From the NCBI GenBank assembly GCA_964388175.1, contig CAYLYS010000004.1:2347-66346 (forward strand): DNA of 64,000 bases. Direction: 5' to 3'. Shown in pieces: positions 1,255 through 26,255 of the stretch. The stretch comes from an uncultured Chromatiales bacterium. Its GTDB lineage: Bacteria > Pseudomonadota > Gammaproteobacteria > SZUA-140. The notes under the pieces were generated by a model, which saw only the letters and a program-made list of their open reading frames with translations, was not told where the DNA came from and made no database searches. Position 1 is the stretch's first letter; every line of letters begins with the position of its first letter. The translations under genes were made by a program, and so were the position numbers.

Positions 1255-1353
1255 CCTGCGCGCGGCTGCCCGCCATGACAGCGAAGCGGACGGCGCTGCG
1301 TGCCCTTTCCATGCTTTTCTAGTATCTTGCTAGCTTCTCTTTTGCAGAGCCTC

Positions 1354-9613: not shown

Positions 9614-10470
9614 ATCACGCCCTTGTGCGCCGCTTCGCTGTAGAACGGCGTACCGAAATAGGTGAAGAAGGCGAAAGCGAACACGCCGATGATGGTCGCC
9701 GCGCCCACGCGCGGCGCAATGTTATAGGTGAAGCGCACGTGGATGGCGAGACCGAGCAGCAGCCAGTTGAGAAACGACGAGGTTTCGAGCGCATCCCAGG
9801 CCCAGTAGCGTCCCCAGGCATCCTGGGCCCAGACCGCGCCGGCGATCAGCATCAGGCTTTCGAAAACCAGCGCCAGCAGCATGAAGCGCCAGGCCACGGT
9901 ATCGAGTACGTCGTCGCCGGGCATGTGGCGGAAGAGATAGCGGAAACCTACCACGTCGCGCAACAGAATGATGCCGGCAAGACCGGTGCCGATGAGGCAA
10001 AAAGCGAGGAAGAATTTGCCGAAAATGACGTGCGCCCATTTCCAGTCGTGATAATAGGTCGGCGGGAAGGGGCTGGCGGCGGGATCGACCGTCACCACCC
10101 AGGCGCTCATGACCAGCAGGATCGGCAACACCACGACGGCTGTCGGCCTGATCAGGGGAATGCGCCAATAGACCACGGTGTATACCAGCCCGAGACTGAA
10201 CAGCTGGCTGATGAGCAGTTCGAACAGATCGACGAAAGGTCCGTGCCCCACCCGCAGCCAGCGCTCCGTCAGGGCGATCGTCAGCAGAATGACCGCCGCG
10301 GCGAGCAGCGTGAGCACATAGGTTTCCGGACGCCGGGAAAGCACGGCAGCGGTGCTGGTACGTCCTCCCGCGCGCAGTACGCCATGGGCGGCCAGCGCCA
10401 TTGCCAGCGCATAGCTGGCTATGCCCGCATACAGCCATGGCAGTTCCGACACCATGGTTTCCGTGTTCAT
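9610..10470 (-). CDS. ccsA: Cytochrome c-type biogenesis protein CcsA/ResC (System II heme-handling, WWD domain)
   Basis: Tryptophan-rich WWD motif WGRYWAWDALE and polytopic membrane topology. Start at MNTETMVSEL (ATG 10470, with GAGAGGA upstream). ATGA overlap with the resB stop. Confidence 0.85.
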   Translation of the reverse strand: MNTETMVSELPWLYAGIASYALAMALAAHGVLRAGGRTSTAAVLSRRPETYVLTLLAAAVILLTIALTERWLRVGHGPFVDLFELLISQLFSLGLVYTVVYWRIPLIRPTAVVVLPILLVMSAWVVTVDPAASPFPPTYYHDWKWAHVIFGKFFLAFCLIGTGLAGIILLRDVVGFRYLFRHMPGDDVLDTVAWRFMLLALVFESLMLIAGAVWAQDAWGRYWAWDALETSSFLNWLLLGLAIHVRFTYNIAPRVGAATIIGVFAFAFFTYFGTPFYSEAAHKGVI

Positions 10471-11498
10471 AGCGTTTTTCCTCTCGCCACATCGGATGCC
10501 GCATGCTTGCGGTCGGCCTCGCGGGCAATGGCATAGGTATGAACGGTGCCGAACTTGCGCCAGAAATGCGCGGCGAGCCCGAATACCGTGATGAACGCGA
10601 CGATGAACAGCCACTGCAAGGTCGGATCATAATACAACTTATAGCCCATCCAGCTCGACAGACGCTCATAACGCAGAAAACCGTCATCGAGCCGGATCGA
10701 TTGCCCCTGCGCCAGCTCCACGCGCTCATCTCCTGCGCGCACCACCAGCATGCCGCGCGCGTTCGCCGGCTCCAGGCGCCAGTCGGTCTGCGGATCCATG
10801 CCCGTTTCCAGTTGCAGCCAGAAGCGGATTTCCTGATCTCCCGGCCCCGGCACCCAGCGGTTCGCCTGGCGATGCTCGAACAGCGGATACGAGGGCATGT
10901 GAATGGCGCCGGTGACGGGCACGCCGGCGTCCGGCGTCCAGGTCAGGATGGCGGCAAAACCTTTGTTGAACGTGGTATAGAAGCGATAGCCGTCGAGCAC
11001 CAGCGGCGTATGGTCGCCGATCACCCGATGCTCCCAACCACCGCGGCCATCGGCAACGGCAATCTGGCTGCGCGTCGCGCCGCGCACCATGCCCGTGGAG
11101 TAATCGATGGCATACGGCCCCTGCAGGAAGTGCACGCGCTCGAAGTTGCCGCGGTGCCAGAGCCCCGTGCGGACATCGATCATGTCATCCGGTGAAAATG
11201 CCTGGCCTTCGGCGAGTTCGACGTTGGCTTCGAGGTAGGTCAGCCGGCCGATCGCAACGAGAACGGCGATGGCCAGCAGGCCGATATGGAACACCAGCAG
11301 GCCGCCGCGGCGGTTGATGCGCGGATCGGTGATGATGGCAGCGCACAGATTGATGGACAGCACGGTCAGCGGCGCAACCAACACCCAGACCGGCGTATCG
11401 ACAGGGTTGTCGTAGTTCAGCGCCGCACCCAAGCCGAGGAACACCATACCGAAAACGGTCAGACGCGTCGACGCGAGTTTGCGCAGAGCGCCACTCAT
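10467..11498 (-). CDS. resB: Cytochrome c biogenesis protein ResB/CcsB (System II)
   Basis: About 343 aa. N-terminal TM helices, a large periplasmic domain and a C-terminal TM, as in ResB. Start MSGALRKL at 11498 overlaps the undecaheme stop. Directly upstream of ccsA. Confidence 0.75.
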   Translation of the reverse strand: MSGALRKLASTRLTVFGMVFLGLGAALNYDNPVDTPVWVLVAPLTVLSINLCAAIITDPRINRRGGLLVFHIGLLAIAVLVAIGRLTYLEANVELAEGQAFSPDDMIDVRTGLWHRGNFERVHFLQGPYAIDYSTGMVRGATRSQIAVADGRGGWEHRVIGDHTPLVLDGYRFYTTFNKGFAAILTWTPDAGVPVTGAIHMPSYPLFEHRQANRWVPGPGDQEIRFWLQLETGMDPQTDWRLEPANARGMLVVRAGDERVELAQGQSIRLDDGFLRYERLSSWMGYKLYYDPTLQWLFIVAFITVFGLAAHFWRKFGTVHTYAIAREADRKHAASDVARGKTL

Positions 11499-14251
11499 GG
11501 CAGGTTCACGCAGGCCTCGTTGCTGTTGTTCATCCAATCGACGCCGACGATGGCGTTGCCGGGCGGGCCGGCCGAACCGCAGTTGACGTCCAGCCACTCG
11601 CCGCTGCGGGCGAAGCTGCGGATCTTCAGCGCGGAACCGAGATAGTAAGGCCCCTGATAATAGCGCCCGGTGCCGGACGACGCGAAACCGCTGTAGCGCA
11701 CCTGGGTACCCGGCGGCAGCTCGGCTTCCAGGCCGACGTCGTTGAGGTTGGCGAGGAAGGTCTTGTTCTTCCAGCCGTGCGGAATGGCGATGTGGCAATA
11801 GGTGCAGCGGAAATTCTGCACCACGAAGGCATGGCCCACATGCAGATTGACGCCGAGGAACTGCAGGCAGCCGCCACCTCCCACCGCGCGGCGGAATCCA
11901 CTCAACACCACGTCCGGATTGGGCGACAGCACGCCACGCGCATAGTTCTTGGGATCATGGCAGCGGAAGCACAGGTGATTGGCCGAATCCTCCTCAGTAG
12001 GACGCAAAGTGTTTGTTCCAGTCTGATCGTTCCAGTTGCCCTTGAGCAGGAAATTCTCGTCCGAACCGTGCGGTCCCCAGGGGAAACCATGCTCCCCACC
12101 CTCTGGCACCACGGTGTCACCCCGCGTACGTGAACCATGGCAGTCCGTGCAATACATGGTCTGCGTACCGACCGCCGTATTGAAGGGCGGACGCCAGGCA
12201 TTGCCGTCCGCGCCGCGCACCGCCGGCGTCCGTCCGGTCGGCTGCAGCGTGGGATGCCATGAGCGATGGTTGTTGGTGACGTAGTCGACCAGATTGCCCT
12301 GCGGATCGAGGCGCGAGAACGTCACCACGCCCTGGCCGCCGGAATCGGTCACCGTCGCCGGCACCGGCGCCTGTGCGCCGATATAGGCGCCGGTCGGCGT
12401 TCCCGGCGTGACCTCGCCCTGATGATCGCGCGGCGACTGGAACTCCATGCCCTGGTTGGTGTAATTGAACAGGGAGTTGGTGCCCGCCGGCGTCAGCCCG
12501 GAGGTATATCCCAGCGGCGGCGGAATATCGTAGGCGTAATTCGAGTGGCACTTCATGCACAGCTGATACTCGCGCGTCAGATACGGCGCGCTGACATCGG
12601 TGCTGCCGCCGACACCGGGATCGCCACGCTTGACCTGGAAATCGACCGGAATGCTGCCGAAGGCGGTATTGGCGTAGACCGGCTCGACGCCCCAGATGCC
12701 GCGCAGCACGCCCGAGGCGAGATTGCTCGGCGGAATGCCCGGCGTATGCTCGTGCGTCGGACCCGGATCGGGCACCGTCGGATCGGCGTTGAACAGACGG
12801 GTGCGCTGCACGCGATGCGGATTGTGGCAGTCGGTGCATTCGGCATGACGATTGGCGAGACCGCCGAGGCCGAGCAGTTCGCGCGACTCGATGAAATCCT
12901 GGCCGCGCTGCATGCCCTGCGTCGCGTCGTCGCCGGTGCCGATGTTGTGTACCTCACCCCCCGACAGTTGATCGGTGTTCGAGATCGGCATGTGCCGCGC
13001 CATGGTGGTGAAGTCAGTCTTGATGTCCGGAACTTCGAAGGCCGGATTGCTATTCGGACTGTTCTGTCCCTGCAGCGTCTGCGCGGTCGGCGGCCCGACG
13101 GCAGGATCGCCATGGCAGGCATAGCACACGTTTTCGATCGAGGGGTTGCCGCCCTGGCGGGCGCCGGTGACCGGATCGAGAGGGCCGTCGGTGCCTTCGC
13201 GCAGGATGCGCCGCGAACCCTGTACCGTGTGCGGATCGTGGCAGTTCAGACAGGCCGCCTGCCACACGCGCGTGCCGCGCGGGAATTCGCGCAGATCGGC
13301 GGCCTCGTTCGTATAACGCTCATCCGCCACCGCCGGATTGGCGTGCGCCGAACCGGCCCAGCCTTCCTTGTCGTGGCAGGCGAGGCAGATGATGTCGCGC
13401 TGCGCATCGAACTGTCCCTGCACCGGCGGCTGCTGCTGGAAGCGGTTCACGCGCAGGAACTTGATGTTCTCGCCCGGTACCTGCGAACGCAGATGGGGAT
13501 CGTGGCAGGTGATGCACTCCACCTTGGGACCGACGCCGTCGGCATCGCGTTCGAGCGGCAGATACTGGCCGCGCGGCAGCGGCTGGCGCGCTTCTCCGTC
13601 GATACGGCGCACGCGCTCATCCAGCCATGGCACCGAATTGGGATCGAACAGCTCGCCGTCACGCGCCGCCTGGGCGCTGTCGTAGGTGAAGGAGATCGGA
13701 TGGTCGTTGCTGAGATCGACGCCGAGATGACGGGTGAAGCCGGTCGTCACGCCGTGTCCCTGCGGTATCGTTCCCGGCGGTGAGCTGTCGCCGGCAGGGA
13801 AGGTGAACGGTACCGTGCGACCATCGCGGTTGGGCTGATCGCGATTGAGCACGTTGACCGCGCCGAGGGCAATAGTGCCGTCGTGGCACGACAGACACAG
13901 CTTGGACCGGCCCGTGGGCTGGCCGAGGTCGGTGGCGTCGATGGAACTCGATGAATACGGAATATAGGCCGTCTGCCGCAACTCGCGGTTCCACAGCGGC
14001 GCGTTCTGCGCGGGCGTCGCGCCGTGCGGCGTGTGGCAGAACACGCAGATCTGCGACTCTTCCGTGGCGAAGGCGCGGCGTTCGGTGCCGTCGGGGAGCG
14101 TGATACCAGCGGGCGGAACCGTGGCGGAGAAATTGTGCCGGGTGTTGGCGATGTCGGAGATCGGGGCCGCCGCCGACGCCCACATCGTCCACAGCGCGGC
14201 ACCGATACAGATGGCGGCGCCGGCGACAAAGGTAGACCAGCGACGCATCAC
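11495..14251 (-). CDS. Undecaheme c-type cytochrome, 918 aa, secreted
   Basis: Signal peptide and 11 CxxCH motifs, several in the form CxxCH(D/N)PH: CVFCH, CLSCH, CITCH, CLACH, CLNCH, CYACH, CTDCH, CMKCH, CTDCH, CFRCH, CTYCH. The N-terminal about 90 aa are homologous to the tetraheme protein at 22706..23545. Confidence 0.85.
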   Translation of the reverse strand: MMRRWSTFVAGAAICIGAALWTMWASAAAPISDIANTRHNFSATVPPAGITLPDGTERRAFATEESQICVFCHTPHGATPAQNAPLWNRELRQTAYIPYSSSSIDATDLGQPTGRSKLCLSCHDGTIALGAVNVLNRDQPNRDGRTVPFTFPAGDSSPPGTIPQGHGVTTGFTRHLGVDLSNDHPISFTYDSAQAARDGELFDPNSVPWLDERVRRIDGEARQPLPRGQYLPLERDADGVGPKVECITCHDPHLRSQVPGENIKFLRVNRFQQQPPVQGQFDAQRDIICLACHDKEGWAGSAHANPAVADERYTNEAADLREFPRGTRVWQAACLNCHDPHTVQGSRRILREGTDGPLDPVTGARQGGNPSIENVCYACHGDPAVGPPTAQTLQGQNSPNSNPAFEVPDIKTDFTTMARHMPISNTDQLSGGEVHNIGTGDDATQGMQRGQDFIESRELLGLGGLANRHAECTDCHNPHRVQRTRLFNADPTVPDPGPTHEHTPGIPPSNLASGVLRGIWGVEPVYANTAFGSIPVDFQVKRGDPGVGGSTDVSAPYLTREYQLCMKCHSNYAYDIPPPLGYTSGLTPAGTNSLFNYTNQGMEFQSPRDHQGEVTPGTPTGAYIGAQAPVPATVTDSGGQGVVTFSRLDPQGNLVDYVTNNHRSWHPTLQPTGRTPAVRGADGNAWRPPFNTAVGTQTMYCTDCHGSRTRGDTVVPEGGEHGFPWGPHGSDENFLLKGNWNDQTGTNTLRPTEEDSANHLCFRCHDPKNYARGVLSPNPDVVLSGFRRAVGGGGCLQFLGVNLHVGHAFVVQNFRCTYCHIAIPHGWKNKTFLANLNDVGLEAELPPGTQVRYSGFASSGTGRYYQGPYYLGSALKIRSFARSGEWLDVNCGSAGPPGNAIVGVDWMNNSNEACVNLP

Positions 14252-15312
14252 GCCTCACCCAGGAGTTGGAATATCATGATACGACCGTTGAAAGCATCAG
14301 CGACGTAGATCCGGTCACGGTGATCCGTCCAGACCCCGGCGGGCAGATAGAACTCTCCGATGCCACTGCCGGAACCTCCGATGGCCAGCAGCAGCTCCCC
14401 TCCATCGTTGAATACTAACAGATGGTCATAATAGGATTCCACCACATAGACATTGCCGTGAGAATCCACCGCAACGCCTTTGGGCCGCGGCATATCGCCG
14501 ACGAAAAGGCCACGCCGGCCGAATTCGCGCACGAATTTTCCGTCGGCATCGAAAATCTGCACTCTCGCATTCAGTGTATCGGTGACGATGAGGCGATCGT
14601 CGACGTAGGTGAGATACGTCGGCGCATTGAATTCACCCGCGCCTTCGCCGTGCGCACCGATGCGTCCGAGCAGCTCGCCGGCATCGCTGAAAATCTTGAC
14701 GTCGTGCGCCTGTGCATCGGCGACGAAGATCCGTCCGCGCGCCGCGTCGCGCACCACGCCGACCGGACGCTCCACTTGGCCGAGACCGATGCTGCCGCGC
14801 GGTTCGCCATCAGCACCGAGGCGCACGATCACCTTCAGATCCGCATCGGCGACCAGGATCTCGCCGTTGGCGCCGGGCGCGATGCCGACCGGCGTCATGA
14901 AACGCACCATCGGCCCGGCCGCCTGCCACAGCAACAGCTTGCCCTGTGCTTCGTCGAAAACGAAAATCGCCCCCCGGCTGACGTCGGTGACGAAGATGCG
15001 TCCGTCCTCGCCGACGAAACCGTTCTGCGGCCGCTGCAGGATCATCGGCGTATGCTTGGAACTGCCCAGCCCGACGACCCAGCTCAGCAAACGGCTGCCG
15101 ATACTGCTCACCTTGGACGAAGAAAAATTCTCCTCACCGGTGAGCTGACCGACCAGCGCATAGCGGGCCGTATCCGGCGCCTGGGGCCAGCGGAAACGCT
15201 CGTCTCCGGCGTATTCATACTGCAGCGTGGCGGGTCCGCTGGCGCATCCGGCCATGAACAGACACAGGAACAGAACGAACGGCAGTCCCGCGCGTGCCTG
15301 ACGCACGCTCAT
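14248..15312 (-). CDS. NHL-repeat (six-bladed beta-propeller) lipoprotein
   Basis: Lipobox FMAGC and six NHL-like repeats (e.g. GRIFVADAQAHDVKIF, DRLIVTDTLNARVQIFD, GNVYVVESYYDHLLVF, DRIYVADAFNGRIMIF). ATGA overlaps on both sides. Confidence 0.8.
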   Translation of the reverse strand: MSVRQARAGLPFVLFLCLFMAGCASGPATLQYEYAGDERFRWPQAPDTARYALVGQLTGEENFSSSKVSSIGSRLLSWVVGLGSSKHTPMILQRPQNGFVGEDGRIFVTDVSRGAIFVFDEAQGKLLLWQAAGPMVRFMTPVGIAPGANGEILVADADLKVIVRLGADGEPRGSIGLGQVERPVGVVRDAARGRIFVADAQAHDVKIFSDAGELLGRIGAHGEGAGEFNAPTYLTYVDDRLIVTDTLNARVQIFDADGKFVREFGRRGLFVGDMPRPKGVAVDSHGNVYVVESYYDHLLVFNDGGELLLAIGGSGSGIGEFYLPAGVWTDHRDRIYVADAFNGRIMIFQLLGEA

Positions 15313-16361
15313 CGCACCGCCGGCTCCGCGTCGACAGGCGCCGCCCCCGGCCAGGACGCCAGTGTCAGAATCTGAATGCGGCGGTTCAGGCTGTCGGCGA
15401 CATAGAGGAATCCTTCGTCCAGCCACAGGTCGGTGATGCGGCGGAAGCGGCCCGGCGCCGAACCGTGCCCACCGATGACGCCGATCAATTGGCTGCCCTG
15501 ATAGACCTTGATGTCGTCGCTGAGATAATCCGCGACGAAGGCGCGCTGCTGATGATCGACGACGATCGCCGTGGGGAAGGTAACGGTATCCTGTTGGAAC
15601 GATTCCCGGTACGCGCCATCCGGGCCCATGACCTGGACCCGCGCCGGACCATAGCGGGTGGCGATGTAATAGCCTGCCGGCCCTTGCGCCAGCGCGGTGA
15701 TGCCGAGAAAACGTCCCGCCCCCGCGCCACGCACGCCGATCGCACCCGACAGCAGTCCGGCAGGGTTGTACACCAGCACGTCATCGTTGAAACCATCGGC
15801 GATGAATACATAACCGGTATCGTCGTTGACCACCACGTTCATCGGACGACCGATGTTGATGCGGTCCTCGATGGTTCTGAGCAGGCGGCCATCGGCATCG
15901 AAATGCAAAACCCGGGCGCCGTCGGTATCGGCGAGGTAGAACGACAGATCGCGGTTGAGATGGATATCGGCGGCGTTGCCATGCAGAACGCCCTTGAGAT
16001 CGAGGACCATGCTCAGGCGGTCGAGGCGCCTGTCATATCTGAACAACTGCTGGTGACCGGCATCGACGATGTAGACCAGATGGCCTTTCGCCGCCACCGC
16101 CACGGGTTGCAGCAGCTGCGTGGAGATCGGCCCCGTCAGCATCTGCCATTCTCCGCTGCCGCTGGGCGCGCTGTCGAGCACCTGCCAAAGCTCGCCCGGC
16201 CCGGTCTGCGCCATGGTTTGCGGCGCCGGAGGCGCCGACGGCGGGGCGAAACGGGCAACATCCTCGCGCGTCAAGGCACAGGCCTGCAGCAGCAGGGCGA
16301 GCGCGGCGAAGATCAGCGCAGCAGGGTAACGTCTTGGGGTACGGAATGACATCTGCCGCAA
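15309..16361 (-). CDS. NHL-repeat beta-propeller lipoprotein (second copy)
   Basis: Lipobox LLQAC and NHL-like repeats (GHLVYIVDAGHQQLFRYD, LSFYLADTDGARVLHFD, GYVFIADGFNDDVLVY, GFLYVADSLNRRIQIL). The start (16361 or 16352) overlaps the 3' end of the upstream triheme gene by about 40-50 nt. Confidence 0.75.
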   Translation of the reverse strand: MRQMSFRTPRRYPAALIFAALALLLQACALTREDVARFAPPSAPPAPQTMAQTGPGELWQVLDSAPSGSGEWQMLTGPISTQLLQPVAVAAKGHLVYIVDAGHQQLFRYDRRLDRLSMVLDLKGVLHGNAADIHLNRDLSFYLADTDGARVLHFDADGRLLRTIEDRINIGRPMNVVVNDDTGYVFIADGFNDDVLVYNPAGLLSGAIGVRGAGAGRFLGITALAQGPAGYYIATRYGPARVQVMGPDGAYRESFQQDTVTFPTAIVVDHQQRAFVADYLSDDIKVYQGSQLIGVIGGHGSAPGRFRRITDLWLDEGFLYVADSLNRRIQILTLASWPGAAPVDAEPAVR

Positions 16362-16924
16362 TTCAGCGTGGGAGAGAATGCGACCTTACCATGACAAACG
16401 CCACAGAAGTCGCCCTGGATGATCGCCGACATGGAAACCGGATTGGCGCCGGCTTGCGGAATGAAGATCGCAGGATGGCAATTGGCGCATGTCAGCCACT
16501 CCGTATGCTGCAGATGGGGAAACCGCACCCACGGCATGGACTGCGTATTCCTGAAAATGATATCGAAATCGACCGGGAACATGTCCATGCTGCCGTCGAG
16601 CGAGGTGCGCGGCTCGATCAGCCTGCGCTCCAATGTCTTCACCCAGTCGATCTGCCCGGAACCATCGCGCGGGAAACCGGCCATGGCCTCATACGGCTGC
16701 TGCAGAACGGCAACCGCTTCGCCGCTGGGATCATGGATGCCGTCCTCCGCGACCGGAGCGATATCGCCGCGCATCTGGAAATGGGCGCCGCGCGACCACA
16801 ATGGCGCATCCTGCTCCTGTTGCGGGAATACGCTGCCCGCGGCACCCGCTGCCGCACTGACCGTCAAGGCCGCACATAGCGCCAGCAGACGCCACGCGCT
16901 CAGCGGATGCCCTCTTTTCATCAT
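16313..16924 (-). CDS. Triheme c-type cytochrome (c7/c3-like), periplasmic, copy A
   Basis: Signal peptide, then FPHLQHTEWLTCANCH, CGVCHGK and CGRCHS: three CxxCH motifs with distal His ligands in c7-like spacing. Paralogous to 18614..19264. Confidence 0.8.
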   Translation of the reverse strand: MMKRGHPLSAWRLLALCAALTVSAAAGAAGSVFPQQEQDAPLWSRGAHFQMRGDIAPVAEDGIHDPSGEAVAVLQQPYEAMAGFPRDGSGQIDWVKTLERRLIEPRTSLDGSMDMFPVDFDIIFRNTQSMPWVRFPHLQHTEWLTCANCHPAIFIPQAGANPVSMSAIIQGDFCGVCHGKVAFSPTLNCGRCHSVPQDVTLLR

Positions 16925-18507
16925 CTCACGCCCATCGCCTGCAAAGCGCGCTGAATATTGCTGGTGGCGCCCTGCAGCATGAGTATGGCTTCCTGGTAAT
17001 TACCGCGCGCGGCCTCGGGTTCGGACAAGGCCTTGACCTCTCTCGCCCGGTCGATGAACGGCATGATCAGCTTTCTGGTCTGCTCATTGGGTTCGCGCTG
17101 CTGAATGGCGAGCGGCACCAATCCTTCATAACCGAGGTAGCGCGACAGCTCGTATTCATATTCATCGCGTGGCGTCTGAAACACCAGTTCATGCACGATG
17201 GTCTGTTCGGCCAGCATCTCGGTCAGCGCCGTAGTCAGCGTATTCTGGGCGCCGCCCAGCATGCTGATCGCCTCGTTGTACTTGCCGTCATCGGCAAGCG
17301 ACCTGGCGTTGCTCATGACGCTCTCGATCTGCTTCAGATCGACGGCGCGGACGTTGCTTCGCCCCTTGTTCTTGACCATCTGCTCGTAGTTGCGGCGGTA
17401 CGAGGCCTCGAACCCCTGCACACCCTCATACATCTCCAGGAAACGGGCGCGCTCGGCCTCGCCGCGCGATTCCTGAGGCACCAGCAGGGAAGACTCGCTC
17501 ATCAGCCGCATGGCATCTTCGACCAGAGGCAGCGCATTCTGCTGTTCGCCGGCGGACAGCGCGCCGCGGGCTTGCTCGAAACGCTGCTGCGCATCGCGGT
17601 AGAGAGCGAGCGCGGTCTCGTTGCCGCTGTCGCGGATGCGCGCGGCAGCCGGCGACTGATTGATGAACATGTCGGCGAACTGAATCTTCTGCTGGATCTG
17701 CTGCGCCGATACGTTGCGCTGCTGCGCGCTCTGTGCACCCGCATCCGCGGTTCCCGGCATCTTGCCGCCGCGAGCGGCCTGCAGCTCGGCGATGGACAGA
17801 TTCTCCTGCCCCTCATTGACGATGTAGATCGGGCCACCCATGTTCCGGTGGTTTCGGCACTGGTAATAGAGCAGATCCGGCGCCTGCGCACTCGGCGTGA
17901 ACGTCACCACACCTTCATAGATGAACTGGCCGCTGACGCCATCGACATAGGTCGCGGCACCCCAGCCGACCTCGCTGCCGGAAAGGTAGAAATCGTGCTG
18001 TATGCCGGCATTGACGCTGAAACGATAGGTCTTGCCTCTCACCATCACCAGCGGCTTGCCCTGCACGCCATTGACTACGAATCCCATGCGATGGCCGACG
18101 CCATAGTAGGGATGCGAAGTATCCTTGGTCTCGGTGACGACATTGAACAGGAAAGGCGAGCTCGGCGGCGCCTCGCGCGCCGGCACCGCGGCAGGGACAG
18201 GAACGGATGAAGGCGCCGACGCCGACTCGGCTGGAACCGGAGCTGGTGCCGCTTCCACCGTCGCCGCGGAGGGTTCGGGTTGCAGCGGCACGACCTCGGC
18301 GACAGGCGTCTCCTCGGCGGGCGCTGGCTGGAGAAGCGCCGACGATGGGATGACCACTGTCACCTCCTGGGGCGAAGCAGCAACGGCAGACGGCGCCGAC
18401 GCTGCGGTCGGAGCGGAAGCAGGCGCATCGCTTCCGGTCGTGGCGCAGGCGGACAGCGTCAGCGCGATGATTGCCGGGAACAGCAGGCTAGGGAAACGGG
18501 ATCGCAT
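16921..18507 (-). CDS. Lipoprotein with Pro/Ala-rich linker, cupredoxin-like (putative type-1 copper) domain and long alpha-helical C-terminal domain
   Basis: Lipobox LTLSAC with a strong SD (AGGGAGGA) before ATG 18507. About 110 aa P/A/S-rich linker. Domain with candidate copper ligands (His in IQHDFY; C-x2-H-x2-M in YYQCRNHRNMGG). About 300 aa Q/A/R/E-rich helical tail. Confidence 0.55.
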   Translation of the reverse strand: MRSRFPSLLFPAIIALTLSACATTGSDAPASAPTAASAPSAVAASPQEVTVVIPSSALLQPAPAEETPVAEVVPLQPEPSAATVEAAPAPVPAESASAPSSVPVPAAVPAREAPPSSPFLFNVVTETKDTSHPYYGVGHRMGFVVNGVQGKPLVMVRGKTYRFSVNAGIQHDFYLSGSEVGWGAATYVDGVSGQFIYEGVVTFTPSAQAPDLLYYQCRNHRNMGGPIYIVNEGQENLSIAELQAARGGKMPGTADAGAQSAQQRNVSAQQIQQKIQFADMFINQSPAAARIRDSGNETALALYRDAQQRFEQARGALSAGEQQNALPLVEDAMRLMSESSLLVPQESRGEAERARFLEMYEGVQGFEASYRRNYEQMVKNKGRSNVRAVDLKQIESVMSNARSLADDGKYNEAISMLGGAQNTLTTALTEMLAEQTIVHELVFQTPRDEYEYELSRYLGYEGLVPLAIQQREPNEQTRKLIMPFIDRAREVKALSEPEAARGNYQEAILMLQGATSNIQRALQAMGVR

Positions 18508-18560
18508 TCCTCCCTCATATACTCTGGCATACATTCGGGCACACACTCAGACAGACATCC

Positions 18561-18596
18561 GGCGGAGACAGAAGGCCCGCCCTGAACGGGCGGGCC
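18561..18596 (-). terminator. GC-rich hairpin (GGCCCGCCC-TGAAC-GGGCGGGCC) followed on the transcript by a U-rich tract (UUCUGUCUCC); candidate intrinsic terminator or attenuator
   Basis: Perfect 9-bp stem read at 18574-18596, 18 nt downstream of the triheme B stop codon and upstream of the cupredoxin gene RBS. Confidence 0.4.
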
Positions 18597-18613
18597 TGAC
18601 TACCAAAACAATT

Positions 18614-19264
18614 TTATCTCCAAGGATTCTTGACGGTCGCCTCGCTCAACGGTGGCTTCCAGTCCGCGGGCTTGGGCTTGGAATGACACTTCCCGCAGGT
18701 CGTCGTGGTCACCGGGAAGGACACCTTGCCATGGCACACGCCGCATTTCTCACCCAGCAGAATAGCAGACATGTTGATCTGATTGGATCCCGCCTGCGGC
18801 ACGAAGATCGCCGGATGGCAGTTCGAGCAGAACAGCCATTCCGTATGCTGCCGATGCGGGAACACCACATCCGGCATCGATGCCTTCACCGGTCTGACGA
18901 TATCGAGATCCATGACGAAGGGCTCTTCCGATGAATCGATGCGATCCCAGCGCGGGCGCAGCAGACCTTGATCCAGCGCCTGCACCCAGTCGATACGGTT
19001 GCCGAACACGGTACGCGGCAATCCCTGATAGGCTTCTTCCGGCGGCTGCAGCGAGAAGGTCGCCTCGTTGCTGGTGTCGTGGATACCGTCTTCCCACGGC
19101 GGCGGATTGGCGCTGTCACGCTTCTTCAGGTTGACGTTGAACTCATTGGCGGAAGAAACGCGCGATTCCTGCGCCGATACCGACTGTATCTGCCAAGGCA
19201 GCGCAAAAACCACCAGTGCAGCGGACAGACCGAGTGCGATCGAGACTTTCTTGATGATATTCAT
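18614..19264 (-). CDS. Triheme c-type cytochrome (c7/c3-like), copy B
   Basis: Signal peptide, then FPHRQHTEWLFCSNCH, CGVCHGK and CGKCHSK. Clear paralog of copy A (shared DGIHD, IDWVQAL and HTEWL blocks). Confidence 0.8.
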   Translation of the reverse strand: MNIIKKVSIALGLSAALVVFALPWQIQSVSAQESRVSSANEFNVNLKKRDSANPPPWEDGIHDTSNEATFSLQPPEEAYQGLPRTVFGNRIDWVQALDQGLLRPRWDRIDSSEEPFVMDLDIVRPVKASMPDVVFPHRQHTEWLFCSNCHPAIFVPQAGSNQINMSAILLGEKCGVCHGKVSFPVTTTTCGKCHSKPKPADWKPPLSEATVKNPWR

Positions 19265-19287
19265 GGCTCACTCTCTCCCGTCCGTCA

Positions 19288-19737
19288 TTATTGCTGCGAC
19301 TGTGCGCCGGCTGCGGGGTCCAGCGGCTTGAATGCCGGGGCCACGAGACGCTGCACGGTGCTGCCGTGGAAGTGAGTGGGAGTGCCGGGAATACCGGAAT
19401 GGCACATGGCACAGTTTTCGACCGACCAGGCCACCTCGCCGTTGTGGCAGGCGCCGCAGAACTGGCCGTCCACGATCTTGGCCATCGTGATCTGATTACC
19501 GCCCGCCTTGAACTGGAAGCCCAGGTCGGCGTGGCAAACCTTGCAGCGGAAACGCACGCGATGGAACCAGTGCGGGAACACCACTGGACGCATGGCCGCG
19601 GCATCGGAATAGTTATTGATGACGACGTCGCCGTATTCCGCCTGTGCTGGCTGCGGCGCCGCCCATATCCACAAACCGATCAGGAGCCCCGCAAACAGCG
19701 AGATGCGCGCAGGCATCCGAGAGATCATCGATGGCAT
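19288..19737 (-). CDS. Triheme c-type cytochrome, copy C (divergent, 149 aa)
   Basis: Signal peptide, then FPHWFHRVRFRCKVCH, CGACHNG and CAMCHSG. Same heme spacing logic but low identity to A and B. Confidence 0.8.
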   Translation of the reverse strand: MPSMISRMPARISLFAGLLIGLWIWAAPQPAQAEYGDVVINNYSDAAAMRPVVFPHWFHRVRFRCKVCHADLGFQFKAGGNQITMAKIVDGQFCGACHNGEVAWSVENCAMCHSGIPGTPTHFHGSTVQRLVAPAFKPLDPAAGAQSQQ

Positions 19738-19814
19738 AACAAACCCCTCCTACTTGCTTTCCAACCTTTATTTTTTATGCAGACACAGGCCTGGCCGGGC
19801 GAGCGAATCCGGGC

Positions 19815-21578
19815 TCAGAAACGACGGTTTATCTGAAAATAGATAATATTGTAATTGTCGTCATTCTGATCGCCGGAGAAACTGATGTAGCGCCAGCTCA
19901 GACTGGTATCCACCAGCCCGATCACGTAGTCCAGTCGGTTCTCCCACTCTGCGCGGTCTATCCCCTCGTCCGTGGCCGCGCGCGCAATACGCAAATCCGA
20001 GTTGAACCGAAGCTGGGCTATGTCGAACAAGCCCATGTGCCGGTAGGTCACCTGGCCGGTTGCGGTTACTGTATCATTATCCCGCAGCCCGTTGAAGTCC
20101 CGGCTCACCATTTGCACCGTCAGATTTCCGCTCAACATGCTGTACAGACTGAGCGTCTGATTGCGCATGAACTGCAGATTGGCGAATTGCTGATTGTCGT
20201 CCTGATCGCCGAATCCGCGGGAATCCGACAATGTCAGGTGGATCATCGTCGTCCCGCTCTCACCGTGCCGGTCCCATGACAGGCTGCCGGTGTGATCCAG
20301 GCGCTGGGTATTGATATCATCGGCCGTATCCGCCGTTTGATAAACCGTGCTAACCGACTGGCTCAGACTCAGGCGGAAAGTCCCCCGTCCATCCGTCATC
20401 CACATGCGCTGCGCATCGTGCCCGAGGCGGACCAGCCCGGTCAGCAAGTCCTCGCTGCCGGTATTCTGGTTCTGGGCCGATGCCTGAGCATGCCAGTTAT
20501 AGGTGAAATGGGTGAAAAGCGGGCGCAGATCGGATTGATAGAGCGCGCCGAGGCGCTGCCGGGAGGTCATATCCACACCGGCGGTATTGGTGTCCGTGAC
20601 ATCGACATTGGCGTCGAAACGCAGATTCTTCGTGTACTGATAAAAAGCGCCGGCGGTGGCGCTGACGCTGGCCTGATCGATCTCCCTGCCAGCGTTACTC
20701 GCCGCCATGTCGAAGAGGCGCACGCCCGCGCTCACCGACAGCGGTCTGTCGACCGGCCGCCAGAACAGAAAGCTCGACACCTGGGTATACGTTATATCCG
20801 CCCTGGCCAGATTGGTGCTGCCGGGCGCCTGTGCCGACCGGGTATCGGAATCGTAGTAGCTGACCATGGTATCGAAGCGCAGCGCCCGATCCGGATGGTA
20901 GAAGTGCTCGACGTTGAGCAGCTTGATATCGTTGTCCTGATCGATGGTCGCCAGCTCTATTTGCTGGTAGCTGGTCCTGGCGCTCAGGGTATGCTGCGGG
21001 CGGCGCATATTGTATTCCAGCCCGATCAGCTGATCCTTGTAGCTCTCGATACCGCGCGACTCCCAGGTGCCATGATCGAAGCGCAACTGAAAACGATCGC
21101 CGACTTCGGTCAGATAGCTCTGGCGCAGCGACAGCCGCCGCGTCTGAAAGTCATAACTGCTGAGCCCGGACACGGGATTGGGCAGCGTGACCGAATCGAC
21201 GCGGCTGTCGCTCATGCGGTAGGACAGCGAAAAAGGGGTACGGCTTTGCGGCAGGACGTTGAGATCGAGATCGAGACCGAGAATGGTCGTGCGCGATGAG
21301 GCGCCCGCATCATAGCTGCTGGCATCCTGGGTCGCGCGCAGCCCCGCGGACAGATTGGCGAACCACGGCTCCCACAGATAGGCCTGCGCGTTCAGCGCGG
21401 CACGCAACTGGTTGCTGTGCGCATCGCTGTTGTCGCTGCCCGTGATCGAACGGAAGGTATAGCCGACACTGCCGGAAACGTCGCTCACTCCGACCGCCGC
21501 CGCCGCAGCCTGCGCACTCCACAGCGCCGCGGCCACCGCGCACAGCATCGAACCGAGTTGACGCTTCCCCTCTGGCAT
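19815..21578 (-). CDS. Putative outer-membrane beta-barrel protein (587 aa, no heme-binding motif)
   Basis: Signal peptide (MLCAVAAALWSAQAAAAAV). Sequence rich in alternating hydrophobic/polar stretches and Y/W/F. C-terminal aromatic residue (...YFQINRRF). Only one Cys in the whole protein, so no CxxCH. Confidence 0.55.
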   Translation of the reverse strand: MPEGKRQLGSMLCAVAAALWSAQAAAAAVGVSDVSGSVGYTFRSITGSDNSDAHSNQLRAALNAQAYLWEPWFANLSAGLRATQDASSYDAGASSRTTILGLDLDLNVLPQSRTPFSLSYRMSDSRVDSVTLPNPVSGLSSYDFQTRRLSLRQSYLTEVGDRFQLRFDHGTWESRGIESYKDQLIGLEYNMRRPQHTLSARTSYQQIELATIDQDNDIKLLNVEHFYHPDRALRFDTMVSYYDSDTRSAQAPGSTNLARADITYTQVSSFLFWRPVDRPLSVSAGVRLFDMAASNAGREIDQASVSATAGAFYQYTKNLRFDANVDVTDTNTAGVDMTSRQRLGALYQSDLRPLFTHFTYNWHAQASAQNQNTGSEDLLTGLVRLGHDAQRMWMTDGRGTFRLSLSQSVSTVYQTADTADDINTQRLDHTGSLSWDRHGESGTTMIHLTLSDSRGFGDQDDNQQFANLQFMRNQTLSLYSMLSGNLTVQMVSRDFNGLRDNDTVTATGQVTYRHMGLFDIAQLRFNSDLRIARAATDEGIDRAEWENRLDYVIGLVDTSLSWRYISFSGDQNDDNYNIIYFQINRRF

Positions 21579-21626
21579 GAATTGCGTATCCCACGTCGGC
21601 CGCCCCGCGGCCTATTCAAGTTGTTA

Positions 21627-22622
21627 TTATTCCGATGGCAACGAATCGGCCGCGCCCACGCCGATCAATTCCTCGTTGACCGTGATCGCCGTCGTCTCAT
21701 GCAGGCGCGCCAGTGCATCCTGCCATGCGCGCTCGCTCAGCTCCCGGTGCAACAGATCACCGGCGCGCTCCGCCACCAGATCGAATGCGTTCAGCTGCGG
21801 AACGACGCGCTCGTCCAGCCGGAAAAGCGCATAGCCCTGCAGCATCTGCAGCGGCGCCGAGAACGTGCCGGGCTGCATGGCATCCAGCACCTCCTGCGCC
21901 TCGCGCGCCAGCATGCCCTTGTGGACATAGCCGAGATCACCGCCCTGCGCCGCCGATCCATCCGCCGAATGCAGCCGCGCCAGATCGGAAAATGACGCTC
22001 CGTCTTTCAGTTTCGCATACAGGCGCTGCGCCTCTTCCTGCGCCGCCTCCCATACAGCGCCACCGGACCAGGGTTCGACCCTGAGCAGTATCATCGACAC
22101 ACGCAGGCGTTCCGGCGTCGTGAATTTGTCCGGCTGCGCCCGGTAATACGCCAGCACGGCCTCCCGATCCGGCGCCGGCACCTGCTCGATCCGCTGCCGC
22201 AGCTGCGCGATGACGCTGTCCCCCATCAACTGCGCCCGCAGGGCTTCGCGCGCGGCAACCGGGTCGGCGCTGGCGGCGATGCGCTCGGTCAGCATGGTCA
22301 TCCGGGCATCCATCCACCGCTCATCCGGCGCGATGCCCTGGCGTTCCGCCTCCTGCAGCAACAGCAATCTGTCGACCATCGCCGCGGCGACTTCACGCCG
22401 GAAGGCAGCGATATCGGCGGCGGGCACCTGACCATGATAGAAGCGCTGTCGGACGCCGGCATGGAAATTCGCCTCGAATTCATCGATCGGGATCACCGTT
22501 CCGCCGACCACGGCAAAGACATCGGCACGATCCGGCGTTTCCTCCTGCTTGTCCTCCACACCGGCATGGCCCGCTGTCGTCAGCAGCAGAAACAAGGCCA
22601 TCGTGATCGAGAAAATCCGCAT
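21627..22622 (-). CDS. Periplasmic peptidyl-prolyl cis-trans isomerase (SurA/PpiD-like parvulin)
   Basis: Signal peptide MRIFSITMALFLLLTTAGHA, a SurA-like N-terminal chaperone region and a parvulin signature (SDGSAAQGGDLGYVHKGMLAREAQEVL ... FSAPLQMLQGYALFRL). The start could also be the Met at 22634. Confidence 0.7.
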   Translation of the reverse strand: MRIFSITMALFLLLTTAGHAGVEDKQEETPDRADVFAVVGGTVIPIDEFEANFHAGVRQRFYHGQVPAADIAAFRREVAAAMVDRLLLLQEAERQGIAPDERWMDARMTMLTERIAASADPVAAREALRAQLMGDSVIAQLRQRIEQVPAPDREAVLAYYRAQPDKFTTPERLRVSMILLRVEPWSGGAVWEAAQEEAQRLYAKLKDGASFSDLARLHSADGSAAQGGDLGYVHKGMLAREAQEVLDAMQPGTFSAPLQMLQGYALFRLDERVVPQLNAFDLVAERAGDLLHRELSERAWQDALARLHETTAITVNEELIGVGAADSLPSE

Positions 22623-22705
22623 CCGAGAATACATGCCAGTCCGGAGCCATGGGGCGGCGGCATTCTGCCCGCAGCATGCCCTGCCGCCCAGGTAGCGCTC
22701 GCCCG

Positions 22706-23545
22706 TCATTTATTGTGGCAAGTCAGACACACTGAACTGCCCACGGGGTCTACGCGCAAAAACAGAGGGTTGTAATCGACATGGGGATCATGGCAGGAAG
22801 CGCATTCCACATAGGGCTGCGGTTCGCCGACGAACACCCCGCGCGTTGCGACCCGGGTGTACAGCTTCATGTCGGACTTTTCGAAATCCGACGATCCCCC
22901 GACGGTACGGGTGTTGACCCACCAGAATCTTTCGCTGCCGACGATCTTGGTTTCCGCCTGATGGAAATCCGGATCGCGCCCCGGCCCGTGCGGATTGGCC
23001 TGGGAATAGCCGCCGCCGGCATACTGCACCGAAACCGGATGATCGTCGCGCAGATCCTTGCCGAGATTGGTGATGACCGTCACCGGGCCGATCCGCCCGC
23101 CCACCGGCGCGGCCTGGCCGCTCCAGACTCCCGCCCTGAAGGCCCAGTTCTCCGCGCCCGAGCCCGGCTCGTTGATCAGTGCGTCCATGGCCTGCGTCCC
23201 GTCGTGACAGGACAGGCAGGCGATCGATACCGAGCCGATCGGCTCGATGGCCGCATCGAGACTGGTGGAACCCAGCTGGTCATAGGTGGTGAATCCGGCA
23301 CTGCCGGGATCGATGTAGCGATTCCACAGAGGAACGGCGACCGAGGCATCGGCGCCGTGCGGCGTATGGCAGAAAACGCAGATCTCCGACGTGCCGCTGA
23401 AATTGCTCGCGGCATTGACGCCGGTACTGCCAAGATTATGCTTGGTATTGAAGATACCGGCGTTGACGGCGTGCGCCGACAGCAGTACGGCCCCGAGCAT
23501 GAGAACCAGCCAGGAACGTCTGCAAGTATGGTGACTTGCTCGCAT
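22706..23545 (-). CDS. Tetraheme c-type cytochrome, secreted
   Basis: Signal peptide and CVFCHTPHG, CLSCHDG, CASCHDPH, CLTCHNK. The N-terminal module NTKHN...CVFCHTPHG...PLWNR...CLSCHDG matches the N-terminus of the undecaheme. Confidence 0.8.
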   Translation of the reverse strand: MRASHHTCRRSWLVLMLGAVLLSAHAVNAGIFNTKHNLGSTGVNAASNFSGTSEICVFCHTPHGADASVAVPLWNRYIDPGSAGFTTYDQLGSTSLDAAIEPIGSVSIACLSCHDGTQAMDALINEPGSGAENWAFRAGVWSGQAAPVGGRIGPVTVITNLGKDLRDDHPVSVQYAGGGYSQANPHGPGRDPDFHQAETKIVGSERFWWVNTRTVGGSSDFEKSDMKLYTRVATRGVFVGEPQPYVECASCHDPHVDYNPLFLRVDPVGSSVCLTCHNK

Positions 23546-25943: not shown

Positions 25944-26255
25944 TCTGTTGTCTCTCCCTTGCACAAGGTTGTTATAGGCACGTTCTCATCAAACGTGCGG
26001 CATTTATATAACACGAGAGATAAATATGCAACACTATTTTGCCATTCATTTCAGCTTATTAAGATTGTTTTTGCAAAAATACAACAGCAGTTGTGCGCAA
26101 GATGCAAAAAGCGTCACACCCCAAGATGTAGGGGGAAGCGACGCGGGAAGACGCAAGATGTACCAATGGGATGGGGTATCGGGCTTGCCGAAGCGGGCTA
26201 CGGAAACGAACAAGGCCCTGTCGCAGGGCCTTGTTCGTTGTCGTCACATGTATTT

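Follow-up and report, generated by a model that had tools for sequence, protein, structure and literature searches.

The undecaheme electron transfer (uet) cluster has been proposed to mediate electron uptake from minerals or electrodes in some bacteria, and the gene between its second and third triheme cytochrome genes has been named "Cupredoxin UetF" (Eddie et al. 2022, bioRxiv 10.1101/2022.05.06.490989). In print, UetF "contains a predicted cupredoxin domain", is "much larger" and could serve some other function (bioRxiv 10.1101/2022.05.06.490989). In Candidatus Tenderia electrophaga, the gene at the uetF position (Tel_16525) appeared to be co-transcribed with three triheme genes, which were reported among the most highly expressed in the organism, and Tel_16525 peptides were more abundant at higher electrode potential (PMC5371394). 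Tel_16525 (ALP54627.1) is the UetF of this organism, as identified by gene position only. The Uet cluster is a leading candidate for cathode or solid-iron electron uptake in Tenderiales, some Gallionella and related uncultured Gammaproteobacteria, and UetF is predicted to be its only non-heme redox protein. An outlying cluster of this kind has been noted in Leptothrix cholodnii (bioRxiv 10.1101/2022.05.06.490989).

Among well-known cupredoxins, rusticyanin carries electrons between outer- and inner-membrane cytochromes in an iron-oxidising uptake chain, and the lipid-modified azurin Laz of Neisseria has an Ala/Pro-rich linker. The C-x2-H-x2-M loop of amicyanin is, to our knowledge, the shortest natural type-1 loop. 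Amicyanin of Paracoccus denitrificans binds copper through Cys92-x2-His95-x2-Met98 and an upstream His53 (PMC12723479), and in the gonococcus Laz is an outer-membrane protein that faces the periplasm (PMC6277709).

Here we have analysed a window of 64,000 nucleotides from an uncultured Chromatiales bacterium (contig CAYLYS010000004.1), in which one open reading frame on the minus strand is uetF. We consider it probable (roughly 60%) that its product is a tethered periplasmic type-1 copper electron carrier of the Uet cluster, with a tail for docking or spacing. Since uetF is already published and named, the present analysis re-identifies a known gene; its value is added detail rather than discovery, namely the ligand set, the lipid anchor, the tether, the tail repeats and the domain family. 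The original prediction, a lipoprotein with a cupredoxin-like domain and a helical tail inside a cytochrome operon, is confirmed as real, with corrections to the domain limits, the tail and the Shine-Dalgarno sequence. Of its interpretation, the cupredoxin and the relay analogy stand, the separate transcription unit is unsupported, and the architecture is unusual only in its helical tail.

The uet cluster and the position of uetF

The window carries the published uetABCDEFGHIJ-ccsBA-nrfG block and a bat operon (Table 1). The cytochromes of the block are a tetraheme, three trihemes and an 11-heme protein; it also encodes a PPIase, two NHL proteins, ResB/CcsA, a TPR protein and a 587-aa protein without Pfam match, and it is adjoined by a convergent MoxR-DUF58-BatA-BatB-BatD operon. 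As in the published cluster, uetF separates the second triheme c7 gene from the third, with ccsBA and the nrfG-like TPR gene downstream, and the start of uetG overlaps the uetF stop by 4 nt. The UetF of Ca. Tenderia electrophaga occupies the same slot, with bat genes alongside, and is of the same size class with a predicted cupredoxin domain; the host organism differs.

Table 1. Features of the uet block and of uetF in the window (coordinates in nucleotides of the window).
Feature	Coordinates	Strand	Remarks
Whole uet block	8855..23545	-	order as in Fig. 2 of the Tenderiales paper (bioRxiv 10.1101/2022.05.06.490989)
uetA	22706-23545	-	4 hemes
uetB	21627-22709	-	peptidyl-prolyl isomerase (PPIase)
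uetC	19815-21578	-	large beta-barrel candidate
uetD	19288-19737	-	triheme
uetE	18614..19264	-	triheme c7-type cytochrome, upstream neighbour of uetF; 3 CxxCH; TIGR04257 1.6e-16
GC-rich stem-loop	18573..18597	-	between uetE stop (18614-18616) and uetF; 10-bp stem, 5-nt loop
Shine-Dalgarno-like AGGGAGGA	18508-18515	-	directly abuts uetF ATG
uetF	16921-18507	-	
Lipoprotein signal peptide (predicted), residues 1-21	18445..18507	-	lipobox L-S-A-C, Cys21, +2 = Ala
Disordered Ala/Pro/Ser/Val-rich tether (predicted), residues 22-117 (96 aa)	18157..18444	-	composition; pLDDT 40-55
Cupredoxin domain (modelled), PF25489 type, residues 118-232	17812..18156	-	eight beta strands
His171 codon, candidate N-terminal ligand	17995..17997	-	HDFY motif, between strands 4 and 5
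Candidate ligand loop Cys217-Arg-Asn-His220-Arg-Asn-Met223 (C-x2-H-x2-M)	17839..17859	-	strand 7 end to strand 8 start
Linker from cupredoxin to tail, residues 233-267 (35 aa)	17707..17811	-	pLDDT falls to 43-76, partly low-confidence
All-alpha tail (modelled), residues 268-528	16924..17706	-	three related helical repeats
uetG	16313..16924	-	triheme c7-type cytochrome, downstream neighbour of uetF
uetH	15309-16361	-	NHL, lipobox
uetI	14248-15426	-	NHL
uetJ	11495-14251	-	11 hemes
ccsB	10467-11798	-	
ccsA	9610-10614	-	
nrfG-like TPR gene	8855-9613	-	matches twelve TPR families

Of 80 related genome loci, about 70 have uetE-uetF-uetG in this order within the same arrangement, among them those of three Candidatus Tenderia sp. 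MAGs (L028, L032 and L071), whose proteins align over residues 1-527 with 38-43% identity from the syntenic position. The closest relatives in the genome collection (59-61% identity) come from MAGs labelled Chromatiales or Gammaproteobacteria. Two orphan full-length paralogues (L024 and L033) are present in a Gallionellaceae MAG outside any uet or cytochrome context, so that UetF is not strictly tied to Uet. Around these paralogues and one stand-alone domain (L078) there are only unrelated genes, of housekeeping or regulatory type, which offered no clue to function.

The cupredoxin domain and its candidate copper ligands

The AlphaFold2 model shows eight beta strands at residues 120-230, with a domain pLDDT of 94.7. 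The beta-rich domain had been placed at residues 150-260; it is real, with limits at about 118-232. The model has the cupredoxin fold, a Greek-key beta sandwich of 7-8 strands, and superposes on solved cupredoxins, the best Foldseek match being rusticyanin at 16-18% identity. The relation is visible by fold comparison only and not by sequence search of the PDB: with whole-protein and domain profiles, these searches gave nothing significant, the matches being designed helical proteins, laccase (E 0.05) and pseudoazurin (E 1.2).

The candidate copper ligands are H171, C217, H220 and M223, carried by IQHDFY (residues 169-174) and YYQCRNHRNMGG (residues 214-225). H171 comes just after strand 4, C217 stands at the end of strand 7, and the loop between strands 7 and 8 contains H220 and M223, which is the canonical topology of type-1 copper sites. 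Among 121 family members, C217, N219, H220 and M223 are invariant, and H171 and D172 are each present in 120, the exception for H171 being gapped there in the HMM alignment. Thus the type-1-copper-like arrangement that had been proposed is complete and canonically placed, and the cysteine, whose absence from orthologues had been suggested as a check, is kept in all 121. On the evidence of the model, the beta domain of UetF has a cupredoxin fold and a full type-1 ligand set, whose four ligands are expected to meet at one site by topological equivalence rather than by distances. His132 (K-D-x2-H-P-Y-Y-G) was also considered as a fifth ligand and set aside, as three UetF homologues have Asp there and the residue varies across the wider family.

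The ligand-loop spacing is identical to that of amicyanin, a soluble 12-kDa partner of methylamine dehydrogenase with no detectable sequence similarity to UetF, in which Asn54 instead of Asp follows the first His. In rusticyanin the ligand loop is longer (Cys138-x4-His143-x4-Met148). Rusticyanin of Acidithiobacillus ferrooxidans (PDB 1rcy / 1cur) has a single type-1 copper centre, as is predicted for UetF, but it is a soluble protein of about 155 aa without anchor, tether or tail, and it has Ser86 after the first His ligand where UetF has an invariant Asp172 (the equivalence of the positions is discussed in PMC12723479). With its short loop, Asp172, low identity and 528-aa lipoprotein form, UetF is not a rusticyanin. 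The suggested parallel with the rusticyanin relay is nevertheless a reasonable analogy, because uetF is located in a cluster proposed for extracellular electron uptake and rusticyanin is the best structural match.

The same ligands bear on another reading, in which UetF would deal with copper and not with electrons, as a cupredoxin-like periplasmic protein for copper binding, chaperoning or tolerance. We consider this highly improbable. Ligation by His/Cys/His/Met with a short C-terminal loop is how electron-transfer type-1 sites are arranged (PMC12723479), cytochrome genes flank uetF in about 70 loci, and the ORFs scanned in the window (uet, bat and sampled larger ORFs) include no copper enzyme, pump or regulator.

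The domain family

A Pfam search had been suggested for copper-binding or cupredoxin families, and it did return a family, PF25489 (At5g54830-like domain), which was matched by all 26 UetF domains scanned (best E 1.3e-9). Classical cupredoxin models gave no significant match: the plastocyanin/azurin family PF00127 hit only one of the 26 (E 0.056), and the full protein had no such match. The domain of the window scores 26.0 bits against PF25489 (E 9.6e-6), just under the gathering cut-off of 27 bits, and the full-length protein scores 21.2 bits; many homologues carry a precomputed PF25489 match. Judged from these profile matches, the UetF domain appears to belong to PF25489 and not to the classical copper-binding families.

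UetF shares the pattern seen across the family, K-x3-H-P-[YF]-[FY]-G ... H-[PD]-F ... Y-Y-x-C-x2-H-x2-M-G. Its subfamily is distinguished by invariant H-D-F-Y and C-R-N-H, where most family members carry H-P-F. Among 224 domains of the wider family, about 92% retain all of the type-1 ligands. PF25489 has more than 5000 cluster representatives and can be found in tandem arrays in very large proteins resembling cell-surface proteins. In the papers searched on PF25489 we have found no experimental characterisation, and nothing on the N-terminal domain of At5g54830.

Start, predicted lipid anchor and tether

The open reading frame extends from a GTG (16921..18546), and the ATG at 18507 gives a 528-aa product starting MRSRFPSLLFPAIIALTLSAC; homologue starts coincide with the same MRS. 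No record identical to the 528-aa product turned up in an exact-sequence look-up. A strong Shine-Dalgarno sequence of its own had been claimed for the gene. The sequence is present, but its GGAGG core ends 1 nt before the ATG, and only an upstream GAGG, 5 nt away, is normally spaced.

The lipobox that had been noted is evident: LSAC fits the bacterial lipoprotein pattern [LVI][ASTVI][GAS]C, with a predicted lipidation site at Cys21. At least 77 homologues have a lipobox by the strict pattern, with A, G, S or V but never D at +2. The Pro/Ala/Ser-rich tether, described as about 110 aa, is present but shorter (Table 1); it contains 26 Ala, 20 Pro, 14 Ser, 12 Val and 8 Glu, and AlphaFold2 predicts it to be disordered. 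Among homologues the tether ranges from 66 to 144 aa. In short-form homologues (415-445 aa) it is absent and the signal peptides are ordinary, and in Gallionella MAGs a domain of the same subfamily is found as a stand-alone secreted protein of roughly 170 aa. The stand-alone form has the format of classical soluble blue-copper carriers and therefore favours a carrier function.

The architecture had been called unlike that of rusticyanin or azurin. The helical tail is indeed unusual, but the lipid anchor has a precedent in Laz (PMC6277709). In Laz, as is proposed for UetF, a cupredoxin electron carrier is preceded by a lipoprotein signal peptide, and Laz is therefore a precedent for a lipid-anchored, periplasm-facing carrier; unlike UetF, it has an azurin-family domain, a much shorter linker and no helical tail, and is encoded outside a multiheme cytochrome cluster.

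A lipoprotein signal and a long flexible leash would also suit display of UetF on the cell surface, as for the Shewanella lipoproteins MtrC and OmcA, so that the leashed copper domain of UetF would meet the mineral or electrode directly. Such display would be in line with an extracellular electron-transfer cluster that includes the beta-barrel candidate UetC, and with the occurrence of the domain family in surface-like arrays. However, the short and stand-alone forms, with ordinary Sec signal peptides and no anchor, fit a periplasmic carrier, and the flanking trihemes are predicted to be periplasmic (bioRxiv 10.1101/2022.05.06.490989). Moreover, gonococcal Laz, the one lipidated cupredoxin tested for exposure, faces the periplasm (PMC6277709), and no surface-lipoprotein export system was identified within the window. 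Surface display is thus improbable.

The helical tail

The tail, described earlier as about 300 aa and coiled-coil, is helical over residues 268-524 (about 260 aa). In the model, with pLDDT above 90, the helices are grouped by threes into three bundles that resemble one another as internal repeats (about 266-345, 346-438 and 440-528), and a coiled coil was rejected on these grounds. Tel_16525 and some JGI homologues were earlier annotated as TPR proteins (PMC5371394 for Tel_16525). A TPR assignment was rejected as well, for the protein matches no TPR family at E values up to 1, whereas the true TPR gene of the block matches twelve. Kinship with the periplasmic helical YfdX/DUF4398-like proteins (PF10938, PF14346) was also considered, with no clear assignment. 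The most conserved motif is F-x-T-P-x-E-E-Y-E-Y-E-L-S-R-Y (443-456); F443, P446, Y450, E453, R456, P465 and P473 are strongly conserved, and so is the C-terminal GVR.

The conserved helical tail makes up about half of the protein, and it could carry the main function.

It has been suggested for Tenderia that this protein aligns cytochromes (2017; PMC5371394). UetF might then be mainly a structural or assembly scaffold for the trihemes, the NHL propellers or an outer-membrane complex, with a copper site that is structural, regulatory or vestigial and outside the main electron path. The confidently modelled tail, about half of the mature protein, with its strongly conserved motifs, and a cluster rich in assembly factors (PPIase, CcsBA, the TPR protein and a DsbA-like protein) are consistent with this role. 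Yet the type-1 ligand set stays so constant, both in the 121 homologues and across the wider family, that a vestigial site is not expected. The tail-less stand-alone domain of Gallionella and the lack of a match of the tail to TPR or any other interaction-repeat Pfam family also argue against a scaffold, which we regard as unlikely.

Proposed role of UetF

As a periplasmic electron carrier, UetF would be exported and lipidated at Cys21. Its probable destination would be the outer membrane's inner leaflet, because the +2 residue is Ala and not Asp, under an E. coli +2 rule that may not hold in this lineage. The 96-aa disordered Ala/Pro/Ser leash would hold a single cupredoxin domain with one type-1 (blue) copper bound through His171, Cys217, His220 and Met223. 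Most likely this copper would act as a one-electron, relatively high-potential periplasmic carrier between the Uet multiheme cytochromes and inner-membrane acceptors. Its candidate cytochrome partners comprise the UetA/UetJ/UetC conduit of the outer membrane and three trihemes, UetD, UetE and UetG, whose genes lie on both sides of uetF, and the three-repeat tail is most likely a docking or spacer module towards partner proteins. Since blue-copper centres are typically of much higher potential than bis-His multiheme cytochromes, UetF could set the potential of entry into the respiratory chain. For expression, spectroscopy and electrochemistry, a practical starting point is the cupredoxin domain, which spans about 115 aa and is modelled with confidence.

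A more far-reaching proposal, which we hold only tentatively and rather doubt, is that UetF is an outer-membrane-anchored blue-copper shuttle and that, jointly, PF25489 is a large unrecognised type-1 copper family. The leash, of 66-144 residues, would be long enough for the copper domain to move across the periplasm between the Uet outer-membrane conduit and inner-membrane oxidases. If so, the shuttle would be a high-potential node for electrons from electrodes or minerals above +300 mV, and PF25489 domains, including the tandem arrays in giant surface proteins, would be genuine type-1 copper domains.

The uetE-uetF junction

It had been suggested that a terminator-like hairpin (18574-18596) precedes uetF and that the gene heads the downstream transcription unit. 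The hairpin is real and one nucleotide longer at each end (Table 1). Its arms are AGGCCCGCCC and GGGCGGGCCT, with the loop GTTCA and a weak T tail, CTGTCTCC; it folds with a dG of -26.9 kcal/mol (z -4.6), and none of 200 shuffles was as good. The transcription unit is unsupported. No sigma-70-like promoter was found in the 106-nt uetE-uetF spacer, and because the U-tract is usually missing as well, a separate uetF transcript has no support; the gene at this position in Tenderia appeared to be co-transcribed with its triheme neighbours. The hairpin was listed by a terminator scan, in which the regional count of terminator-like sites (13) is not above that in shuffles (10.4 +/- 3.1). As the default reading, an intrinsic terminator of the ordinary kind followed by a promoter was rejected on the same grounds: no promoter-like site, weak T tails in the window and in most relatives, and a count not above shuffles.

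Across 68 related loci, the best hairpin in the 90 nt that follow uetE has a median dG of -23.3, and 62% of the loci reach -22 or lower, compared with 0-13% at most other junctions. The 51 strong hairpins after uetE are of 49 distinct sequences, and only 10 of the 51 have a T-rich tail (at least 4 T in the 9 nt past the stem). The post-uetE hairpin is thus conserved in position, usually without a U-tract.

Genomic context of uetF

The gene block around uetF is the uetABCDEFGHIJ-ccsAB-nrfG-bat module (uet, undecaheme electron transfer), known from the electroautotroph Candidatus Tenderia electrophaga and related bacteria (bioRxiv 10.1101/2022.05.06.490989), where the gene flanked by the second and the third triheme genes is listed as "Cupredoxin UetF". 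With the bat operon, the window has the complete 18-orthogroup module of the Tenderiales description. The original observation on uetF is correct, but the gene had already been published and named. The details added here (ligand spacing, Asp172, the domain family, the tail repeats, the architectural variants, and a conserved stem-loop) may help future characterization, for which the copper domain should be readily accessible.

Scanning one genome per species yielded 80 loci, all from metagenome-assembled genomes (MAGs) labelled Gammaproteobacteria, Chromatiales, Tenderia, Gallionellaceae, or Nitrosomonadales. Identity to the closest of them is 59-61%. The order uetE-uetF-uetG within a full cluster was found in about 70 of the 80 loci, Tenderia sp. 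MAGs included (tblastn with the window's proteins).

Features of the uet region and of short-form UetF paralogs (positions in the window unless a locus is named)
Feature	Position	Strand	Description
MoxR-DUF58-DUF4381-BatA-BatB-BatD operon	1300-8100	+	convergent with uet block
dsbA-like	8143-8844	-	DsbA-like protein
nrfG-like	8855-9613	-	TPR protein
ccsA	9610-10614	-	CcsA
ccsB	10467-11798	-	ResB-like
uetJ	11495-14251	-	918 aa, eleven CxxCH motifs
uetI	14248-15426	-	NHL propeller
uetH	15309-16361	-	NHL propeller
uetG	16313-16924	-	c7-type triheme
uetF	16921-18507	-	studied ORF
uetF, full ORF	16921-18546	-	GTG at 18546, stop 16921-16923
His132 codon of uetF	18112-18114		
Post-uetE hairpin	18573-18597	-	10-bp GC stem
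uetE	18614-19264	-	c7-type triheme
uetD	19288-19737	-	c7-type triheme
uetC	19815-21578	-	587 aa, no Pfam match
uetB	21627-22709	-	SurA-like PPIase
uetA	22706-23545	-	four-heme cytochrome
Porin gene	23671-24777	-	Porin_4 family
Porin gene	24942-25964	-	OmpL-like or phosphate-porin-like
BIN13 paralog	L024, 9944-11236		short form
BIN13 paralogs	L033, 8406-9728 and 10010-11329		short form, two in tandem

Lipoprotein signal and tether

Translated from the ATG at 18507, the product has 528 aa and starts MRSRFPSLLFPAIIALTLSAC; UetF homologs start at the identical MRS. The motifs noticed originally are all present in this product: the lipobox LSAC with Cys21, IQHDFY at residues 169-174, and YYQCRNHRNMGG at residues 214-225. 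Residues 22-117 (96 aa) are mostly Ala, Pro, Ser, and Val, and are disordered by prediction (AlphaFold2, 32-sequence alignment). Under a strict pattern, at least 77 UetF homologs carry a lipobox and, after it, a 66-144-aa tether. None of these homologs has Asp at position +2, which is always Ala, Gly, Ser, or Val; under the E. coli +2 rule, this predicts transfer of the tethered forms to the outer membrane.

Cupredoxin fold and ligand set

In the full-length AlphaFold2 model (32-sequence alignment, mean pLDDT 80.8), eight beta strands are formed by residues 120-230 with pLDDT above 90. The beta domain anticipated from the sequence is thus present, but it lies about 30 residues nearer to the N-terminus. 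Sequence methods are nearly blind to its cupredoxin relation: PF25489 (At5g54830-like domain) matched UetF only below threshold, a profile search of PDB sequences gave no significant match, and the classical Copper-bind family matched one of 26 domain sequences (E = 0.056). The fold comparison, made with a model of residues 112-240 (pLDDT 94.7, pTM 0.88), is clear. The best 50 Foldseek matches in the PDB are all cupredoxins, with rusticyanin at the top (E = 9.4e-5, probability 1.0) and multicopper oxidases, plastocyanin, and copper nitrite reductase next.

In the models, the candidate ligands occupy the canonical topological positions of cupredoxins, with His171 between strands 4 and 5, Cys217 at the very end of strand 7, and both His220 and Met223 in the loop preceding strand 8. 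Loss of the Cys in orthologs would have spoken against a copper site; Cys217 is kept in all 121 UetF family members, as are Asn219, His220, Met223, and Gly224, and His171 and Asp172 are found in 120 of the 121. Amicyanin shows the same Cys-x2-His-x2-Met spacing in its ligand set of His53, Cys92, His95, and Met98 (PMC12723479). The residue following the first His ligand is a known redox-potential tuning position, where amicyanin has Asn54 and rusticyanin has Ser86 (PMC12723479), whereas UetF has the invariant Asp172; in the wider domain family, this position is mostly Pro.

A third conserved His, His132, belongs to the loop that follows strand 1, within the motif K128-D-x2-H132-P-Y-Y-G. It is found in 116 of 121 UetF homologs and commonly across the wider domain family; some sequences have Asp, Asn, or Ser instead. 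By analogy with other cupredoxins, His132 may be situated close to the copper end of the sandwich.

Helical tail

A low-confidence linker (about residues 233-267) is followed by helices spanning residues 268-524 with pLDDT above 90 (AlphaFold2). The tail is helical as predicted originally, but is about 260 rather than 300 residues long. Alignments of three tail segments were compared with hhalign. Segments 346-438 and 440-528 are related (probability 90.8%, E = 1.2e-6), and segment 266-345 is weakly related to 346-438 (probability 61.6%). The tail thus consists of three tandem helical repeats and is neither a coiled coil nor the TPR of earlier annotations. The best-conserved stretch, F443-x-T-P-x-E-E-Y-E-Y-E-L-S-R-Y, together with P465, P473, and the C-terminal GVR, could be a candidate binding surface. 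The repeats would act as a docking or spacer module; that UetF as a whole is mainly a structural scaffold is less likely than electron transfer, given the invariant ligand set.

Domain family and architectural variants

A search of 1.84 billion cluster representatives with the UetF-domain profile recovered 5178 proteins at E <= 0.001, of which 1094 reach E <= 1e-10. The UetF-type domain (PF25489) occurs in tandem arrays of up to about nine copies in giant secreted or surface-like proteins of 1000-2900 aa, fused with repeated domains in other large secreted proteins, and by itself in proteins of about 150 aa (examples among proteins P0121-P0264 are P0121, P0122, P0137, P0150, P0247, and P0255). 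Of 224 wider-family domains, about 92% retain the His ... Cys-x2-His-x2-Met pattern. The UetF domain is one member of a large cupredoxin family, for which we found no experimental work in the literature. Surface display, as the large arrays might suggest, is less likely for UetF itself than a periplasmic location.

In a short form of 415-445 aa, the cupredoxin domain and the tail come directly after an ordinary signal peptide. The Gallionellaceae MAG BIN13 encodes three such paralogs without a tether, located away from any uet or cytochrome genes and next to genes for a TPR-methyltransferase, a kinase, an EAL protein, and the like. Four further loci from Gallionella or Nitrosomonadales MAGs (L077-L080) match the cupredoxin domain only. 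The full protein was read for one of these, L078 (Gallionella MAG, about 9900-10423); it is a secreted protein of about 170 aa consisting of a UetF-subfamily cupredoxin alone, with HDFY and YYACRNHKFMG. Its neighbors (LexA/UmuD-like, DinB-like, and SelD-like) are uninformative, and the contig ends just downstream. The untethered and domain-only forms suggest that the copper domain is the core functional unit, to which tail and anchor would be additions.

A conserved stem-loop after uetE

The hairpin noticed before uetF is real. It is GC-rich, lies about 19 nt past the uetE stop, and has a folding energy of -26.9 (z = -4.6) that none of 200 shuffled sequences equaled. In the 90 nt past the uetE stop of 68 related loci, the median best-hairpin energy is -23.3 kcal/mol, and 62% of these loci reach -22 or below, against 0-13% at most other uet junctions and 26% after uetG. 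Across L001-L076, the stem-loop, much stronger than at other uet junctions, keeps its position but not its sequence (49 distinct sequences among 51 strong hairpins). It mostly lacks a U-tract: only 10 of the 51 have at least four T in the 9 nt after the stem, and the tail in the window is weak. No promoter-like site was found in the 106-nt uetE-uetF spacer, and the Tenderia gene at the uetF position appeared co-transcribed with three triheme genes (PMC5371394). These observations argue against the separate transcription unit originally proposed to start at uetF. We infer that the element is a conserved intercistronic stem-loop, serving as an attenuator or mRNA-stability element, which would raise the level of the upstream uetD-uetE message.

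A weaker hairpin enrichment follows uetG in relatives. The window has no such spacer, since the annotated TTG start of uetH overlaps the uetG end by 49 nt.

Proposed role of UetF

Most likely, UetF carries electrons for the Uet pathway in the periplasm by means of a type-1 copper site. This reading is based on the cupredoxin fold and invariant ligands, the position between cytochrome genes in about 70 loci, and stand-alone and untethered forms that resemble classical soluble carriers. It is also based on the co-transcription in Tenderia, where the triheme genes concerned were reported among the most highly expressed and UetF-position peptides were more abundant at higher electrode potential (PMC5371394), and on Laz as a precedent, an azurin that is lipid-anchored and faces the periplasm (PMC6277709). 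Copper handling is a less likely role, given this cytochrome context. In the long form, a flexible leash would hold the carrier to a membrane, probably the outer membrane. As blue-copper centers typically have higher potentials than bis-His multiheme cytochromes, UetF might supply the high-potential step.

Additional features of the cluster

UetH starts with a lipoprotein-type signal (LLQAC), which contradicts the published PSORTb prediction of a cytoplasmic protein (bioRxiv 10.1101/2022.05.06.490989). The DsbA-like gene between the bat and uet blocks is conserved in closer relatives. Both porin genes lie outside the named uet genes; the OmpL-like or phosphate-porin-like gene precedes the Porin_4 gene, which is directly upstream of uetA and is syntenic with the uet genes, being found at the same place in most related loci.
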